From Octopus vulgaris (taxonomy: Eukaryota), in assembly GCA_951406725.2 (NCBI GenBank), contig OX597840.1:13702001-13766000 (forward strand): a stretch of DNA of 64,000 nt. Reading direction: 5' to 3'. The position numbers were made by a program, and so were the translations under genes. The notes under the pieces were generated by a model. That model did no database searches and was not told the origin of the DNA. It worked only from the letters and a program-made list of their open reading frames with translations. How positions within the stretch are numbered: the stretch's first letter is position 1; each line of letters starts with the position of its first letter. Positions 7,579 through 40,739 of this stretch are shown here, in pieces.

Positions 7579-8063
7579 TCATCATCGCATCATCATTGTC
7601 GTTTAACGTCCGCTTTCCATGCTGGCATGTGTTGGATGGTTTGACTGAGGGCTGACAAGCCAGAAGGCTGTAGCAGGCTCCAATTTGATATGGCGAAGTT
7701 TCTACAGCTGAATGCCCTTCCTAATGCCAACCACTCTGAGAGTGTAGTGGGTGCTTTTTATGTGCCACTGGCACGAGAGCCAGTCAGGCAGTACTGGCAT
7801 TAACCATGCTTGAATGGTGCTTTTTATGTGCTACCAGCATGGGTGCCAGTAAGGCAGGACTGTCAATGAGTTCACTTGACTCAACAGGTCTTTGCAAGAG
7901 CAGATTAATGCCCAATGATTGAAGTGTACTCTTAAATGGGACAGTTATGCTACACTGGTACAGGTCACGATTACTGTCTCACTTGGCTTGCCAGGTCTTC
8001 TCAAGCACAGCATATCTCCAAAGGTCTTGGTCACTTGTCATTGCCTCCTTGAGGCCCAACGTT
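7578..8063 (-). mobile_element. RTE-clade LINE 3' end
   Basis: (GAT)n tail on the minus strand; 3'UTR and ORF end shared with 46985-47830. Confidence 0.8.
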
Positions 8064-8789
8064 GTGCAGTTTATAACGTATAATTTTAGCAAATACAATA
8101 CAATAGATGACAGAATTCCTTTAGTGATTAACTGGCACCAACATTTCGCTAGCATTTCAAAAGTGTTGCATGAAAGTTACCAGCATGTGGTGAAAAAATA
8201 TCCTTGCTTCAAACAGATATTTCTTCAACTGCCTATGGTAGCCCTTAGACAGAATAAGAATATAAGAGAATCATTGACCTCTATTTCTGACTCCAAGAAG
8301 ATGAACATTCGAGTATCTACACGCTGTACCATAAAGAACAGCTGCAAGAGAGGTAAGCCCTGTTCATTGTGCAACAACATGAGTGAAGGGAATTTCATCA
8401 GAAATCATAACAGAAATGTTATGATTTATACAGAAGGTGGAACATGTAAAGATTCCCATTTGGTGTACGCTGCAGAATGCATGAAACACAACGTAATTTA
8501 TGTTGGTTGTACAAGAGAACAATTAAACAAAAGGTTTAATGGTCACAGTTTAGACGTCAGGCACAATAACAGTAGTTCGACAGAACTTGCTGAATATTTC
8601 GTTTCAATATTTCATTTTGAAGAAAACTTTAAAGTGCATATTCTCAGAAAATATTCTGAATCTACTTCACTTTCACTTCTCAGGATGTATGAGGAGAAAT
8701 ATGTTTGCAGGTTATTAACATCACGCCCTGGAGGGATGAATAAGATGACAGGAGAATATCATCAAATTTATACAAAACTGTTTGATTAA
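8064..8789 (+). pseudogene. 5'-truncated Penelope-like element ORF: RT-thumb/linker, Cys-rich linker and C-terminal GIY-YIG endonuclease (Neptune-like)
   Basis: RIPLVINWH..PMVALRQNKNIRESL; CKRGKPCSLC; LVYAAEC..IYVGCT..LNKRFNGH; ..E..LLTSRPGGMN. No internal stop. The first ~38 codons of the 7947 ORF are antisense RTE sequence. Confidence 0.85.
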
Positions 8790-8969
8790 ATATTCTTCTT
8801 TCTCTTTTTTTCTTTCCTTTGTTCTGTCATCTTCTTTTTTCTGTTTTTTTCTTTCTTTTCGTCTGTTAAAGACTTAAAAACTGATGATGTCATTCCATCA
8901 ATGTGTGGATGCTACTTGCTCTCGTTCATACTTTACGTTTAAATTTCTGAATTTTTATCACTTCTTATT

Positions 8970-9012
8970 TTGAACTTGACAAAGACAGACGTACTGTTGA
9001 AATATCATTCAA
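8970..9012 (+). ncRNA. Hammerhead ribozyme-like motif with a U3:A8 core, in the Penelope 3' terminal repeat
   Basis: TTGAAC-TTGACAA-A-GACAG acgta CTGTT-GAAA-TA-TC-ATTCAA, immediately followed by AATAAA. Confidence 0.65.
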
Positions 9013-10110
9013 TAAAATATTTTACAATCGAATCGTGCTCTTCGTCTTGACTGTTTACCTTTGTGAAGAGTTACATCAATCCTTTTTTTAAAATATATAA
9101 TAATAATAAAGGGTAAAATTAATTAATCAATTAATAATTAATAATTTTACCAAGTAGTTCAGTATGTTAAAGAACCATTATCGGTAACCTTATACAAAAA
9201 TTCTATAATTATAAGCATAATTATAATTAGGGTTCAGCAAAAATTGTTTCACCACATACTGAAATTTAGAAATAGTAGTTAACTGCTATTGGGCTTCTTT
9301 CAGCTTCCCTCTACCAAATCCTCTCACAAGGCTTTTGGGTCAGCCCGAGGTTTATAGTAGAAGATATTTGCCCAAGGTAGCACACAATGGGACTGAAACC
9401 AGATTTGTGTGAATGTGAACCACACTTCTTACCACACAACCACGTCTGCACCTATAATCTTATCAAGGTATTGTGTCTATAAGCTGTACAGTACAAATAT
9501 AGAGTAAACACAGTGCTTCACTTAGTTTCAAGAAATAAATTGTTTAGCATGTTAATACTTCACCCAATCTGCCCAGTCCATAGAATTAGAGGACTTGAGA
9601 CTTTCCTTCAGAGTTTGATGTCTCGTTGAAGGTGGTCATATAGCCAGCCATTTTAACCTGTTTCTTACTGCAACTTTCATGCGATTATCTGCAAACAGAT
9701 TATCATTGCAAATGTGATGTCAGTAAAGATAAATTCTTCCAACGAGGACTGAACTTTGTCAAAACCTTCATCTGTTTAACTGCCTGGATGTTGATATGGC
9801 AGCAATATTGATTCCGTTTTTTCCTTCTCTTCCCCTGTTTCTATAAACATAAATGTGTATTTAAGTGGAAAAGTTGATGAATCATATCAAAGAATGGTGC
9901 AGTTTATAATTCTTTTATTCTTTCAGTGGTTTCAGTCATTTGACAGTGGCCATGCTGGAGCACCGCCCTTAGTTGAACAAATCAGCTCCAGGACTTATTC
10001 TTTGTAAGCCTAGTACTTATTCTATCGATCTCTTTTGCTGAACTGCTAAGTTACGGGGATGTAAGCACACCAACACACAGTTGTTAAGTAATGATGGGGG
10101 ACAAATACAG

Positions 10111-10313: not shown

Positions 10314-10358
<45 letters not shown>

Positions 10359-10360
<2 letters not shown>

Positions 10361-11440
10361 GTTATGCCTCAAATTCCCCGCGAAAAGCATGCTAAGACTC
10401 ATTGGAAACGTATGCTGCATAAAATAAAATATTTACTGCCGCATAATTAAATTTATAAATTTATAAATTTATAAATGAGGGTGAAAAGTTGATATTAATT
10501 TAATAATACCATTAATTTAACACCAAGTGGCTTAGCACAAAAAACTAGGGAGATAATTAATGGTATTATTAAATTAATATCAATTTTTCACCCTCATTTA
10601 TAAATTTATAAATTTAATTATGCGGCAGTAAATATTTTATTTTATGCAGCATACGTTTCCAATGAGTCTTAGCATGCTTTTCGCGGGGAATTTGAGGCAT
10701 AACTAAAAATGCAATCAATTAAACCGCATGTGTATTTGACAAAAAACTAGGGAGATAATACAAATTTATACATAAATTATTAGAGTTACCACTATGTGGA
10801 TAGCTCTAGTGCTAAAAATAGCTCCGATAGTATAGCCACAGAAACGATGTTTCCAAGTAGAAATAACATTACATTTAACGGAAGGAAAGTGAAACATAAC
10901 GAATAAATAGATTGATCCTGAACAATTGTTTCATTACTAATGTCAATGCAATTTTACTTACATAGACATCTATAAATCATCAGCAGAGGTTTGTCTTAAA
11001 TACAATTTATTAGACCAACACGAGCGTCAAATACACGTGCGGTTTAACCAATTGCATTTTTAGTTATGCCTCAAATTCCCTGCGAATTGGTCTAATAAAT
11101 TGTATTTAAGACAAACCTCTGCTGATGATTTATAGATGTCTATGTAAGTAAAATTACATATTACATTAGTAATGAAACAATTGTTCAGGGTCATTCTATT
11201 TATTCGTTATATTTCACTTTCCTTCCGTTAAATGTAATGTTATTTCAACTTGGAAACATCTTTTCTGTGGCTATACTAACAGAGCTATTTTTAGCACTAG
11301 AGCTATCCACATAGTGGTAACTCTCTAATAATTTATGTATAAATTTGTATTATCTCCCTAGTTTTTTGTGCTAAGCCACTTGGTGTTAAATTAATGATAT
11401 TATTAAATTAATATCAATTTTTCACCCTCATTTATAAATA
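10359..11440. mobile_element. Compound nested inverted-repeat element in (TA)n, with an HHR-like motif in both orientations
   Basis: IR1 spans 10359-10705; IR2 pairs ~10740-11030 with ~11088-11368. CTGATGA at 11122 and GAAACAATTGTT at 11174, mirrored at ~10920-10985. Confidence 0.75.
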
Positions 11441-11520
11441 TATATATATATATATATATACATCTAATATAGGATAAAATTTTATATATATATATAAATT
11501 TATATATATATATATATATA

Positions 11521-12000
11521 TCTAATATAGGATAAAATTTTTTGAAAAAAATTTTATCAATGGCCAGCATATTAAAAAATACCTTTAAAGGTTAAATTTA
11601 TAAACAATTTATAAACAAGGGCAAAAGAAAAAAATTCTAATGCCAAATATGCCGAAAATAGACAAATTGTCAATAGACAGAAATTTCTAAAAAATATCTA
11701 TTTTGGATATATTTGGGGTACTTAAGTCTGCTCATGACTTGGTGCTTGCTTCTTCCGTGGTTATGAGTAAGTATTTCATTTATGTCTTATGTATTTATCA
11801 CTGATGAGGAGAAAATTCTTATGAATTAACTCTGAAATTGGAACAAATATGATAATAACGCAATTTTTAGAAATTCCTGTCGGCTTACTTCGAGACGCGT
11901 ATTTGTAGTGATAAATTGTATGGTTATTGACAATTTGTCTATTTTTGGCATATTTAGCATTAGAATTTTTTTTCTTTTGCCCTTGTTTATAAGTTGCTTA
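11521..12000. mobile_element. TA-flanked element with a partial inverted repeat and degenerate HHR (11794-11915)
   Basis: ~11605-11675 is the reverse complement of ~11925-11995; TTTATCA-CTGATGA-GGAG ... CTTC-GAGAC..GTA-GTGATAAA. Confidence 0.6.
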
Positions 12001-12464
12001 TGTTATATATTATTTATTATCCAATTGAATGTGAGACACACATATATACACACACATATATGAAGGTTTTCTTTCAGTTTCCGGCTACCAAATCCACTCA
12101 CAAGGCTTTGGTTGGCCCGAGGCTATAGTAGAAGACACTTGCCCAAGGTGCCACACAGTGGTACTGAACCCAAAACCATGTGGTTGGGAAGCAAGCTTCT
12201 TACCACACAACCATGCCTGCACCTGTTACCACACAGCCACAAAGAATTTTTAAAAATCCATTCAGTATGTGCTTACATTTTAAATAATATTTTTGTTTAA
12301 AAAATTAACTGTAAATGACACGTGTCAACTGATGCTGAAACAGAGGTGTTAATGAAAAAGCATCTGAAAGAAACCATGAAAATGTGTAAGATGAATACTT
12401 TGAAATACAAGTCAGGATATCAATAATTACAAAGCAATATTAATCATGATCATCATCATCAGCC

Positions 12465-26545: not shown

Positions 26546-27686
26546 GTTCCAGAGGGTGTCACTGTGCATAAAAAAAGAGGTAGAAGTCTTATCTGTTAAT
26601 ATTTTTCGCAATAGCTTTGTTTTGTGATGTGAGGTATAAATGTGTTGCAATTGTTGCTCATTGTAAATGCATTGTGAGCGTACAAGAGAATGTTGTACTT
26701 GTATGGCAGATGTAACTATTAGAATGATAAAGTTTACAACTTTCACTTATAATGAATTGCCTACAAGACTAGATGATAAATTATGGAAGCAATATCACAA
26801 CACTAAGCTGAAATAAGTCTGGAAATTGTCAATAAAATGAATTTAGGAACTGTATTGTTCAAGACAAACTACATAAATCATAAAATATGAAAAAATCTAA
26901 TAAAAGCATTTAAACTGGAACATAGGTATATTTGCAATATATAAATATGTGTGTGTTTTGTATTAATATATTACAATTGTTTCCATAAACTGACTGTTTT
27001 TATTCCATCACACACACACATATACATATGTATATACGTACATATATATATATATTTAATAATTAAGGGTACAACAGGTAACACCAGCATGCTAAAAGTA
27101 TGTTGTATAGTGAAACTGTACTCTTCTCCCAGTAAAAAGTGGTAGTAGCCAGCCATTATGAATAGGTCAGTAGCCAGTCAACAAGAGTAGATAAAGAAGG
27201 TTGAGAAGGTTGAGAGTGATGAGAGTACGTGTCGACTGTGTTGTAGTCGTGTCTGTGTTGATGTAGTAATTATGCTGTTATACTGAGTGGACTTTTGAGG
27301 ATAATAACACTGTGCAACTGGGGGTTGTACGGTGCCAGATAGAACCATTCTATTGATGACTTTGGAATATAACAATATCTGTCAGAGCGACAACCATTGT
27401 CAAAAGACAGATATAACAGTGGCAAAAGACTGCTTTACAACAAAACAGCAGTCAGAAGACGACTACAATCACAAATTTTCATTCCTCCGACTTCAGTTAA
27501 TGAGTATCAGTGAACATTTGTGGTTGTAGTCGTCTTCTGACTGCTACTTTTAGTGCACTGGTGCCACCTGTAATAATCTTAATTATTAATTAATAATTTT
27601 TTACCTCATGATATTTTCTTACACATGCTATGCCACTTGATATTATTGTAAACAATAATATGCTTGGGATCTTGGGGTTAGAGCCA

Positions 27687-37715: not shown

Positions 37716-38494
37716 ACCAATACCATCAAAACTTTTACAACTATTATTCAACTGCTACCACCACCACCACCACATCTACTTTGACCCCACCACTACAACC
37801 ATACAATGCACAGACACAGGTCTGCCTAAGCCTTTGCTGTCTCCCCCACTCGGCCATTCTTCACTACTGTGTGCTCAGTTATTGTCCATTTTCCTGTTGA
37901 CCTTTTATTTGTCATGCACCGAGTCTGCATTGCATTGTCATTTCCCTTTAACATTCCGTATACACCCACATTACACCAACACACTTCATACTGCACACTG
38001 CCCTATATACACATATACATCCTGTTGTCTGTTTACTTATCCATCTATCTAAACACACACACACACAAGAATCCCCAGTCTTGGGGGAGTAATGTGTTCC
38101 TGAAAAACTTATCTGTAATGTGAAATTTATTTCACTGTTGATTCTCCTGTTTATAACATGAGAATGTCTTCCAAAAGATGTTTACAAAAGAGAAAGGAAA
38201 AAACAACAGCAAAAAACAAAAAAATAGCAAAACAAGAAGCGACAACCACAGTTTCTAAATATATGCAGTCCAATATTTATACGTAAAAACATTTGGTGAA
38301 AAACGTTAAAGAGTAAATAAAAAGAAAACATATTATTGTAATAGGATACATTCTTACAAAAGATGTTGTCTAACATGTGAGGGATAGTGATAATGGAATG
38401 AGAGTTCCCTGGGAGAATGAAGGATTCTTTCTTCTAACTTTGCAGTTCTTCATCAACATTTACTTGAGCAACCAAAGAACTTTTCTCCAGAATT

Positions 38495-39402
38495 ACACTA
38501 TAGATCTTTATTGCAATCAGACCTGGACACAATGCAGCAGTGGATCATGGACTGGCAACTCAAGCTGGCTGTGGACAAATGTACCACCATGCATTATGAG
38601 AGGAAAAACCCAGCGTCCACTTACTCCCTCCACAACACTAATCTCAAAAAGTCTTCTTGTGAACATGATCTGGACGTTATTGTCAACAGCGATTTGTGTT
38701 GGACAAAACACATCGCTCAAATTGCCAAGAAGGCTGAGGGTGTCTTGGCATCACTCACCAAGTCCTTTGTGAGCCGCTCTCCGGCTATATATCAGCGGCT
38801 TTATATAGCTATGGTGCAGCCTCACCTGGAATTTGCACCACCGGTCTGGAACCCCTATCTTGCCCAGGATATTAATTGTCTGGAAACCGTTCAGCGATGT
38901 GCAACCAAGAGAATACCCTCCATCAGGCATTTGCCATATTCTGAACGTCTTACTTCCCTGGGCATGGATACATTGAAACTCCGATGTCTGGCAGCTGACT
39001 TGGCATAAATTTATTAACCATCTTACTAACAATAACTCTGAGCACCTTTTCAAACTCCACCTGTCTAACACCTGTGGACATGGTTACAAAGTCAGAAAAT
39101 GGCACAGCTCCCATGACTTTTGGAAACATTTTTTCACGCTAAGAGTTGCTGAAGTATGGAACAAACTGCCGGCATCAGTTGTTAGTTGTCGGAGCACTGC
39201 ATCCTTCAAAACTTCCATGCTTCCTGAGATTCGCCAACACTACACCTGATTTTCTCCCCTCCATACACACGCAAGCATGTATCTGACTCATACACTGTTC
39301 ACTTCCCAGACATTTGTACATTACTGCATATGCTTTATATGCACTTTTGACAAGTTGTGGTGCACCTGAGCACTGTATACAATAATTTCATTATTATTAT
39401 TA
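38495..39402 (+). mobile_element. CR1/L2-group LINE, 5'-truncated, (ATT)n tail
   Basis: LQSDLD..WQLKLAVDKC..DLDVIVNSDLCWTKHI..LYIAMVQPHLEFAPPVWNPY..LETVQR..LPYSERL. Confidence 0.9.
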
Positions 39403-39977: not shown

Positions 39978-40739
39978 TTATATTAAGGAGGGTTGGCGGA
40001 ATTTCCATATTCTCTGTTTGCTCTTCTTCTAACAACATCAGTTTCCCATTAAATGTGATTTCTCCAAGGGACACCTGCAACTCAACCACATCATCCTGTG
40101 TGGCTTCTTGAAACCCTTTATCACATGCAAGTATATTCTTTTTATTTGTTTCAGTCATTTGACTGCAGCCATGCTGGAGCACCACCTTTAGTCGAGCAAA
40201 CTGACCCCAGGACTTATTCTTTGTTAAGCCTAGTACTTATTCTACTGGTCTATCTTGCCGAACTGCTAAGTGACAGGGACGTAAACACACCAGCATCGGT
40301 TGTCAAGCGATGTTGGGGGAACAAGCACAGACACACAAACATATACAAACACACACACACACATATATATATATATAAAAATTTATAAATAAGGATAATA
40401 TCGATATTTAAATATCAATATTATCAAGTGGCCAGCATGGGAAAAAATACCGTACAAAGGTAATAGTTTTTTACAACTAAAAATAAGGGTGTCTGAGAGA
40501 CACCACCATGCCGGAATCGCAGTATTGAAAGAAATGAAATTGCTCTCTGAAAGGAATCAGGCTGGAGACCAAATAAAGAACTCTTGTGATGTATTTGAAG
40601 GGCTGACTGGTCTTTTCCAGGCTTGTACTTTATTTTCTTTATCTCTAAACAAACCAACTGACTTAGAATTTTTATAAGAGACAGGGAAGAAAATTTTAAT
40701 GCTTGAAGAACTTGTCAGTGTTGAATCACTTCTTTTGTG

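Follow-up and report, generated by a model that had tools for sequence, protein, structure and literature searches.

What is the function of the AT-rich hairpins that recur beside TA-rich tracts in the Octopus vulgaris genome? A preliminary description of a 64-kb stretch of this genome (hereafter, the window) placed four such hairpins at the ends of unrelated-looking insertions and proposed that they form a 3′-terminal RNA signal recognized by a TA-targeting retroelement reverse transcriptase (RT). Reading the sequence confirmed the coordinates of all four hairpins, and the AGG-type end pattern that marks them has five matches in the window, at 9110, 10478, 11529, and 40392 (+) and at 11428 (−). 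The insertions proved to be diverged homologues rather than unrelated elements, with pairwise identities of 42–86% (median 53%).

A conserved branched RNA fold contains the hairpin

We found that the hairpin, here termed P4, is one arm of a branched fold of ~140 nt. A long-range helix, P1 (8–10 bp), encloses hairpin P2 with the CU and AU-rich stretch behind it and then P3, a small hairpin; after P1, a short conserved linker leads to P4, which is followed again by CU and an AU-rich stretch. Two sites at which genomic copies end lie 75–100 nt apart, S1 (proximal) behind P2 and S2 (distal) behind P4. The window contains the following features, with arm coordinates inside the 10344–12001 cluster taken from self-BLAST alone.

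7923..9100 (+): truncated Penelope-like element with a C-terminal GIY-YIG domain (family P), a neighbor outside the motif
9104..9290 (−): family C copy, the 5′-truncated end of a non-coding unit of ~570 bp, holding the whole P1–P4
about 9095–9105 (−): distal end site S2 of the family C copy
9112..9151 (−): P4, the hairpin first described, with CU and then an AU-rich stretch behind it
9158..9167 (−): 3′ strand of P1 (from the fold), containing the downstream letters of the end pattern in the preliminary description
9174..9185 (−): P3, a small hairpin (from the family C fold)
9190..9230 (−): AU-rich stretch with the proximal end site S1 (about 9190–9200)
9231..9253 (−): P2 hairpin, then CU (from the fold)
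9254..9263 (−): 5′ strand of P1 (from the fold)
10344..11434 (unstranded): rearranged tandem/inverted cluster of family B (~495-bp unit), by self-BLAST
10480–10524 (−): second P4 of family B
11116..11190 (+): variant hammerhead-like motif of family B whose helix II is mismatched at its base, recognized by eye and missed by the descriptor
11286–11434 (+): full motif of family B
11520..12001 (unstranded): fold-back of family A (~465–480-bp unit), by self-BLAST and covariance model
11520–11675: inverted arm of the family A fold-back, ending at S2 (motif 11523–11660, P4 11531–11558)
11697–12001: forward arm of the family A fold-back, ending at S1
11795..11855 (+): type I hammerhead-like motif of family A, with a predicted cut near 11849
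27058..27100 (−): inverted arm of family F, a decayed relative, with its end at S1
27545..27670 (+): forward arm of family F with a decayed motif, alone not significant
40386..40519 (−): family D copy (~490-bp unit) with the whole motif (104 bits), P4 at 40394–40425

The whole-motif covariance model (CM) match of the family C copy spans 9104–9267 (81 bits), and this copy lies tail to tail with the family P copy. Weaker versions of the hairpin had also been reported at 27058 and 27590. A relative is indeed present at 27058, where the site is a proximal-type (S1) end behind P2 in an inverted copy. Position 27590 falls inside a decayed forward copy whose distal hairpin lies at about 27640–27661; this hairpin scored 24.5 bits with the CM (E 0.48) and z +0.96, and alone is not significant.

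To assess conservation of the fold, we ran profile searches over the fetched loci, which returned 168 matches in 17 clusters, some of them partial. Fifteen full-length representatives were chosen; family F and others that are decayed or truncated were excluded. Folded singly, the representatives mostly adopted the same P1–P4 design. On the strand that carries the hammerhead-like motif (the hammerhead strand), 13 of the 15 reached z ≤ −2.0, and those of A2 and G2 folded no better than shuffles (z −0.3 and −0.8). Within the window, folding was clearly above dinucleotide shuffles at 9110–9155 (z −6.9, minus strand), and the whole motif gave z-scores of −7.5 (40386–40519), −4.7 (11523–11660), and −3.5 (11286–11434) against the same kind of control.

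RNAalifold predicted P1 unprompted, and 6 of its 8 pairs had changed on both sides. Across P1 and the outer six pairs of P4, 88.5% of 209 cells were paired, compared with 78.0% after shuffling and 35–45% in slid controls, and both sides had changed in 10 of the 14 pairs. Four of five covariation measures were reached by none of 500 shuffles, a significance that is overstated because the families are related; the fifth, which considers further pair types, was not above the shuffles (481/500). The 28 CM matches gave a similar covariation result in an alignment fitted to the model. P2 and P3 derive from single-sequence folds and stand outside these alignment counts. The proposal that the stems differ while their pairing is kept is supported, as covarying RNA structure across the 15 representatives (P1 and P4). 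Wobble cells of P1 comprised 14 G·U against 2 A·C on the hammerhead strand, an excess that favors this strand as the folded one, and P4 had no such bias (1 vs. 2).

A G·U pair at 40394 on the minus strand had been offered as further evidence of maintained pairing. The pair does not count as such evidence: it is carried by 5 of 25 family D copies, 2 of 25 have the opposite-strand CpG change, and the G·U looks like CpG decay. A separate observation concerns the family C copy of the window, in which both sides of one P1 pair (9158–9167/9254–9263) differ from most family C copies with the pair kept; both changes are at CpG, and chance may account for them.

The fold belongs to short non-coding units of probable Penelope type

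We then characterized the repeat units that carry the fold. Preliminary genome candidates, which are not copy numbers, amounted to 3135 for family A, 1926 for B, 2532 for C, and 1399 for D, and 40 were scored per family. Judged from tandem copies, the units measure 463–480 bp (A), about 495 bp (B), about 570 bp (C), and about 490 bp (D). Copies are 5′-truncated, often joined head to head, and set in (TA)n; the truncation and fold-back points vary, and the tandems are partial.

The preliminary description suggested testing for linkage to upstream hammerhead ribozymes or RT open reading frames (ORFs). Hammerhead-like motifs do precede the hairpin on its strand, and a type I hammerhead descriptor recognized them in five of the seven families tested (A, A2, A3, C, and H); families B and D fail the descriptor, and by eye their helix II is mismatched at its base. 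The linkage to RT did not hold, as the units lack an ORF and contained no Penelope protein match in their fetched loci. ORF-bearing versions were sought from the unit A start (30 loci) and likewise for family C, and none was found. Rfam returned nothing at gathering level in the 64-kb window, with no hammerhead match, and only microsatellite noise on four unit loci. The Penelope-type insertion anatomy, combined with a non-coding unit, points to non-LTR retrozymes, and we conclude that the units are very likely non-autonomous Penelope-type elements.

Adjacency to (TA)n was observed: TA runs lie near the copy ends, although the tract at 9105 is short and imperfect. A TA run stood within 40 nt of 13 of the 19 CM matches of at least 40 bits, compared with 5.6% of random windows, in a count whose CM had been trained on TA-adjacent copies. 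In 350 kb of arbitrary stretches we obtained five CM matches of at least 40 bits, some of which had trained the model. Coarse extrapolation from these 350 kb puts the motif at roughly tens of thousands genome-wide, and repeats with P1–P4 represent a large repeat class of this genome. The family count and the partner search below cover about 330 fetched loci.

These units resemble the animal non-LTR retrozymes (PMC7229834; bioRxiv 10.64898/2026.07.22.740005), which are likewise short, non-coding, and low in GC, occur as tandems and monomers, and carry a type I hammerhead, to which the hammerhead-like motif may correspond here. Mobilization of such retrozymes by Penelope-like elements has been proposed in the same sources. 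The units differ from them in length (460–570 bp vs. ~300–390) and in that the copies here are mostly truncated fold-backs in (TA)n. In the available text of the two sources there is no mention of octopus, of hairpins or a tail, or of any further conserved structure.

Insertions of endonuclease-bearing Penelope-like elements are described as having a pLTR, an inverted truncated copy, and a one-sided tail (PMC8557442; PMC3846280). Partial tandems, a head-to-head copy, a one-sided tail, and a (TA)n preference are common to both, the last being non-specific since it also occurs in Neptune-type families of this genome. In contrast to those elements, the units have no ORF. Their tail measures 75–100 nt, compared with the published 30–40 nt, and its borders coincide with a covarying fold, whereas the text of PMC8557442 and PMC3846280, as far as available, describes none.

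Copies end at two sites that pair in fold-backs

We analyzed where the copies of families A–D end. The alignment ended at S1 or S2 in 174 of 199 cases, with S1 and S2 contributing 23 and 33 of 66 in A, 11 and 28 of 43 in B, 11 and 30 of 48 in C, and 9 and 29 of 42 in D; a minority of copies ended at other AT-rich points. A TA run came next at 38 of the 54 S1 ends and 82 of the 120 S2 ends. At the three of eight end sites computed, with 12, 13, and 17 clean junctions, it began 6–21 nt behind the hairpin and generally had 1–4 bases in common with the element; the family A S2 reference was itself a junction copy. Contigs from sequencing runs X1 and X17, aligned to unit B, had loose TA ends at S1.

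Fold-backs numbered 63 in the loci of families A–D, and 13 of them had an end at neither site. Among the 50 that could be classified, 48 combined one S1 end with one S2 end, two had S2 twice (the family B cluster of the window and its near copy), and none had S1 twice. One S2 end in the fold-backs of B, C, and D reflects selection because the queries contained S2; their other, informative end was S1 in 28 of 30. Family A loci, which had been picked by the unit start, gave S1 with S2 in 8 of 8, two of them possibly one duplicated locus. The near copy of the rearranged family B cluster (10344–11434) lies ~85 kb off (C27:13797654) and has a similar S2/S2 layout.

The hairpin ends the DNA copy and lies inside the RNA

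Among the 30 loci selected with the start of unit A, 19 have the S2 end immediately upstream of it, and tandems of families B, C, and D likewise run through S2. S2 lies ~230–260 nt behind the hammerhead, near the middle of the monomer. Since the tandems read through S2, P4 ends the DNA copy and not the RNA, and the hairpin is not 3′-terminal in the RNA as had been suggested.

A candidate landmark for internal cDNA starts

Based on the sequence comparisons, we propose that the fold is probably a landmark bound by a Penelope-type RT, which would position internal cDNA starts. It likely delimits the Penelope "tail", which would be the stretch between these starts. A tandem would be transcribed, and its transcript might then be cleaved at the hammerhead into a monomer, either linear or circular. 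The P1–P4 fold would be bound by a borrowed RT–GIY-YIG protein, which would nick each strand of (TA)n; priming from the two resulting 3′ ends would take place in the AU-rich stretches at S1, behind P2, and at S2, behind P4, with no more than 1–4 shared bases. Joining of the two cDNAs head to head would produce a fold-back with the S1–S2 tail on one side only, and copying beyond one unit length would produce the partial tandems.

PAc, a Poseidon element of Anolis carolinensis, cuts AT-rich DNA on both strands in vitro and starts reverse transcription at two internal stem-loop sites, the stretch between which is the tail; its protein is a predicted dimer, and hammerhead cleavage is dispensable in vitro (PMC11167929). 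The octopus units likewise have two putative start sites downstream of a hammerhead-like motif at a stem-loop, an AT-rich target, and predicted extension of both strands. The PAc stem-loop is AC-rich and comes from one element, whereas the starts inferred here lie 3′ of the hairpins, are AU-rich, and share 1–4 bases. Moreover, PAc is known biochemically, without comparative evidence, whereas the fold described here is known from covariation. Circular templates and more-than-unit copying have also been proposed (PMC4209133).

Template choice, one-sided tails, and head-to-head copies of Penelope-like elements and retrozymes are stated to be open in PMC8557442, and in vitro work on a single element has given a partial answer (PMC11167929). 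In many diverged families, the hairpins of a covarying fold lie just upstream of both end sites, and this fold provides an RNA element to mutate. The available parts of PMC8557442, PMC7229834, PMC3846280, PMC10085705, and bioRxiv 10.64898/2026.07.22.740005 contain no description of such a fold. The repeats represent a known element class with an apparently undescribed conserved RNA landmark, as judged from the open literature; Repbase, Dfam, and subscription journals may bear on this point.

A bolder reading, which we put forward tentatively and consider the less probable one, is that P1–P4 provides Penelope-like elements with a portable template domain akin to that of telomerase RNA, seating both halves of an RT–endonuclease dimer. 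TERT and the Penelope RTs are sister groups. As in P1–P4, a template with a 5′-side helix lies inside a long-range helix in the telomerase RNA core (PMC4993307), a likeness in topology only. With a core-enclosing helix and two template-adjacent hairpins, both (TA)n strands would be primed from one RNA in one step. In telomerase, however, the helix stops synthesis (PMC4993307), whereas here synthesis must pass through the helix, and genomic copies include the helices plus sequence upstream of them. If true, the telomerase-like reading would account at once for the tail and the head-to-head fold-back, offer a comparative handle on the origin of telomerase RNA, and imply that P1–P4 suffices to make any RNA a (TA)n insertion substrate.

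Alternative explanations of the fold and its ends

We considered whether the fold instead serves the RNA's own life, through stability, circularization, keeping the hammerhead free or blocked, or transcription, with the ends set only by AU-rich microhomology to (TA)n. Such a role fits the junctions, which share 1–4 bases with the TA run and are spread over several positions, and it also fits the copies that end at other AT-rich points. However, although the units are AT-rich throughout, the 174 of 199 ends fall into two narrow windows behind a hairpin and CU. These windows are common to widely differing families, and their ends pair one of each, which makes this explanation unlikely.

It is more doubtful still that the structure acts in DNA, with single-stranded cDNA or tail DNA being recognized by the GIY-YIG endonuclease in insertion resolution. 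PMC8557442 attributes the tail to endonuclease resolution, PMC11167929 cites a need of the tail for endonuclease recognition in a fly element, and the lack of a G·U bias in P4 would agree with a DNA structure. On the other hand, the P1 wobbles favor the hammerhead strand by 14 to 2 whereas the cDNA is the other strand, and a four-way fold spanning 140 nt is in keeping with RNA.

The model of the preliminary description, a LINE/SINE-like 3′-terminal stem-loop at the true RNA end of a Naiad-type element, appears very improbable. On the hammerhead strand, the DNA copies do have P4 at their 3′ end, beside (TA)n, and an unknown step could cut the transcript at S2; yet tandems read through S2, and the second end site, S1, lies inside P1. 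The octopus elements Naiad_Ovul and Naiad_Obim target (TA)n, as the units do (PMC8557442 supplement). Naiads are autonomous, with an N-terminal endonuclease and without canonical hammerheads in the account of PMC8557442, whereas the units have no ORF and carry a hammerhead-like motif. The published octopus Naiad end motif has 220 exact pattern matches in the genome, and in the 20 that we fetched P1–P4 was present at the Naiad's own end in none, which argues against the Naiad link.

Terminal hairpins and inverted repeats are typical of DNA-transposon or Helitron-type elements, but ends of that kind, or chance AT-rich palindromes, are largely refuted and retain a minimal probability given the variable 5′ truncation and fold-back points, the partial tandems, the hammerhead-like motifs, the covariation, and the shuffle controls.

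Search for an autonomous partner and neighboring elements

We searched for an autonomous partner of the units, and found none among the fetched loci of Neptune-type, family P, Naiad, and other GIY-YIG families. Among 148 matches for Neptune-type families and further GIY-YIG families, 30 were taken as loci, and 20 stretches were extended; the Neptune-type label refers to the cysteine linker described in PMC8557442, not to a tree. CM matches near Neptune-type, family P, and Naiad elements were separate insertions beyond the TA tract, and these elements were rejected as partners; the ends of the Neptune-type family with intact 781-aa ORFs and of several others differ from those of the units. Family P, whose GIY-YIG ORF in the window (7923–8789) has a Pfam E-value of 1.5e-5, ends in TAA/ATT repeats without P1–P4 and is a separate family. 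When autonomous ends were folded, in an uncontrolled comparison, four closed with a small hairpin and a pyrimidine- or AT-rich stretch, and three had no clear one.

Several of these families have ends of their own. Family P (window 9040–9100, L106–L135) has two end sites ~40 nt apart and a terminal hairpin, and its hammerhead core halves lie >100 nt apart. In a young Neptune-type family (L231:2664–5006 and relatives), many copies keep an open 781-aa RT–GIY-YIG reading frame preceded by another open frame, together with a minimal hammerhead. Copies of this family end at two sites of their own and have a ~38-nt tail with a small hairpin and CU. At 3 of 15 Neptune-type ends (L212/L231, L213, and L234), the TA tract that follows immediately contains a motif-bearing fold-back. 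At the octopus Naiad ends (L281–L300), hammerhead core halves occur in swapped order, ~40–60 nt either side of the match, with a hairpin preceding the first core half; this arrangement is possibly a permuted or dimeric ribozyme.

Two further elements were observed in the window. A genome search with 27260–27620 was discarded since the element it retrieved, bounded by short terminal inverted repeats, was unrelated; positions 27100–27445, inside the family F fold-back, are such a MITE-like element, with 561 preliminary candidates. A LINE-type RT frame fragment lies at 38421–39008, with a weak Pfam RVT_1 match (E 0.044).
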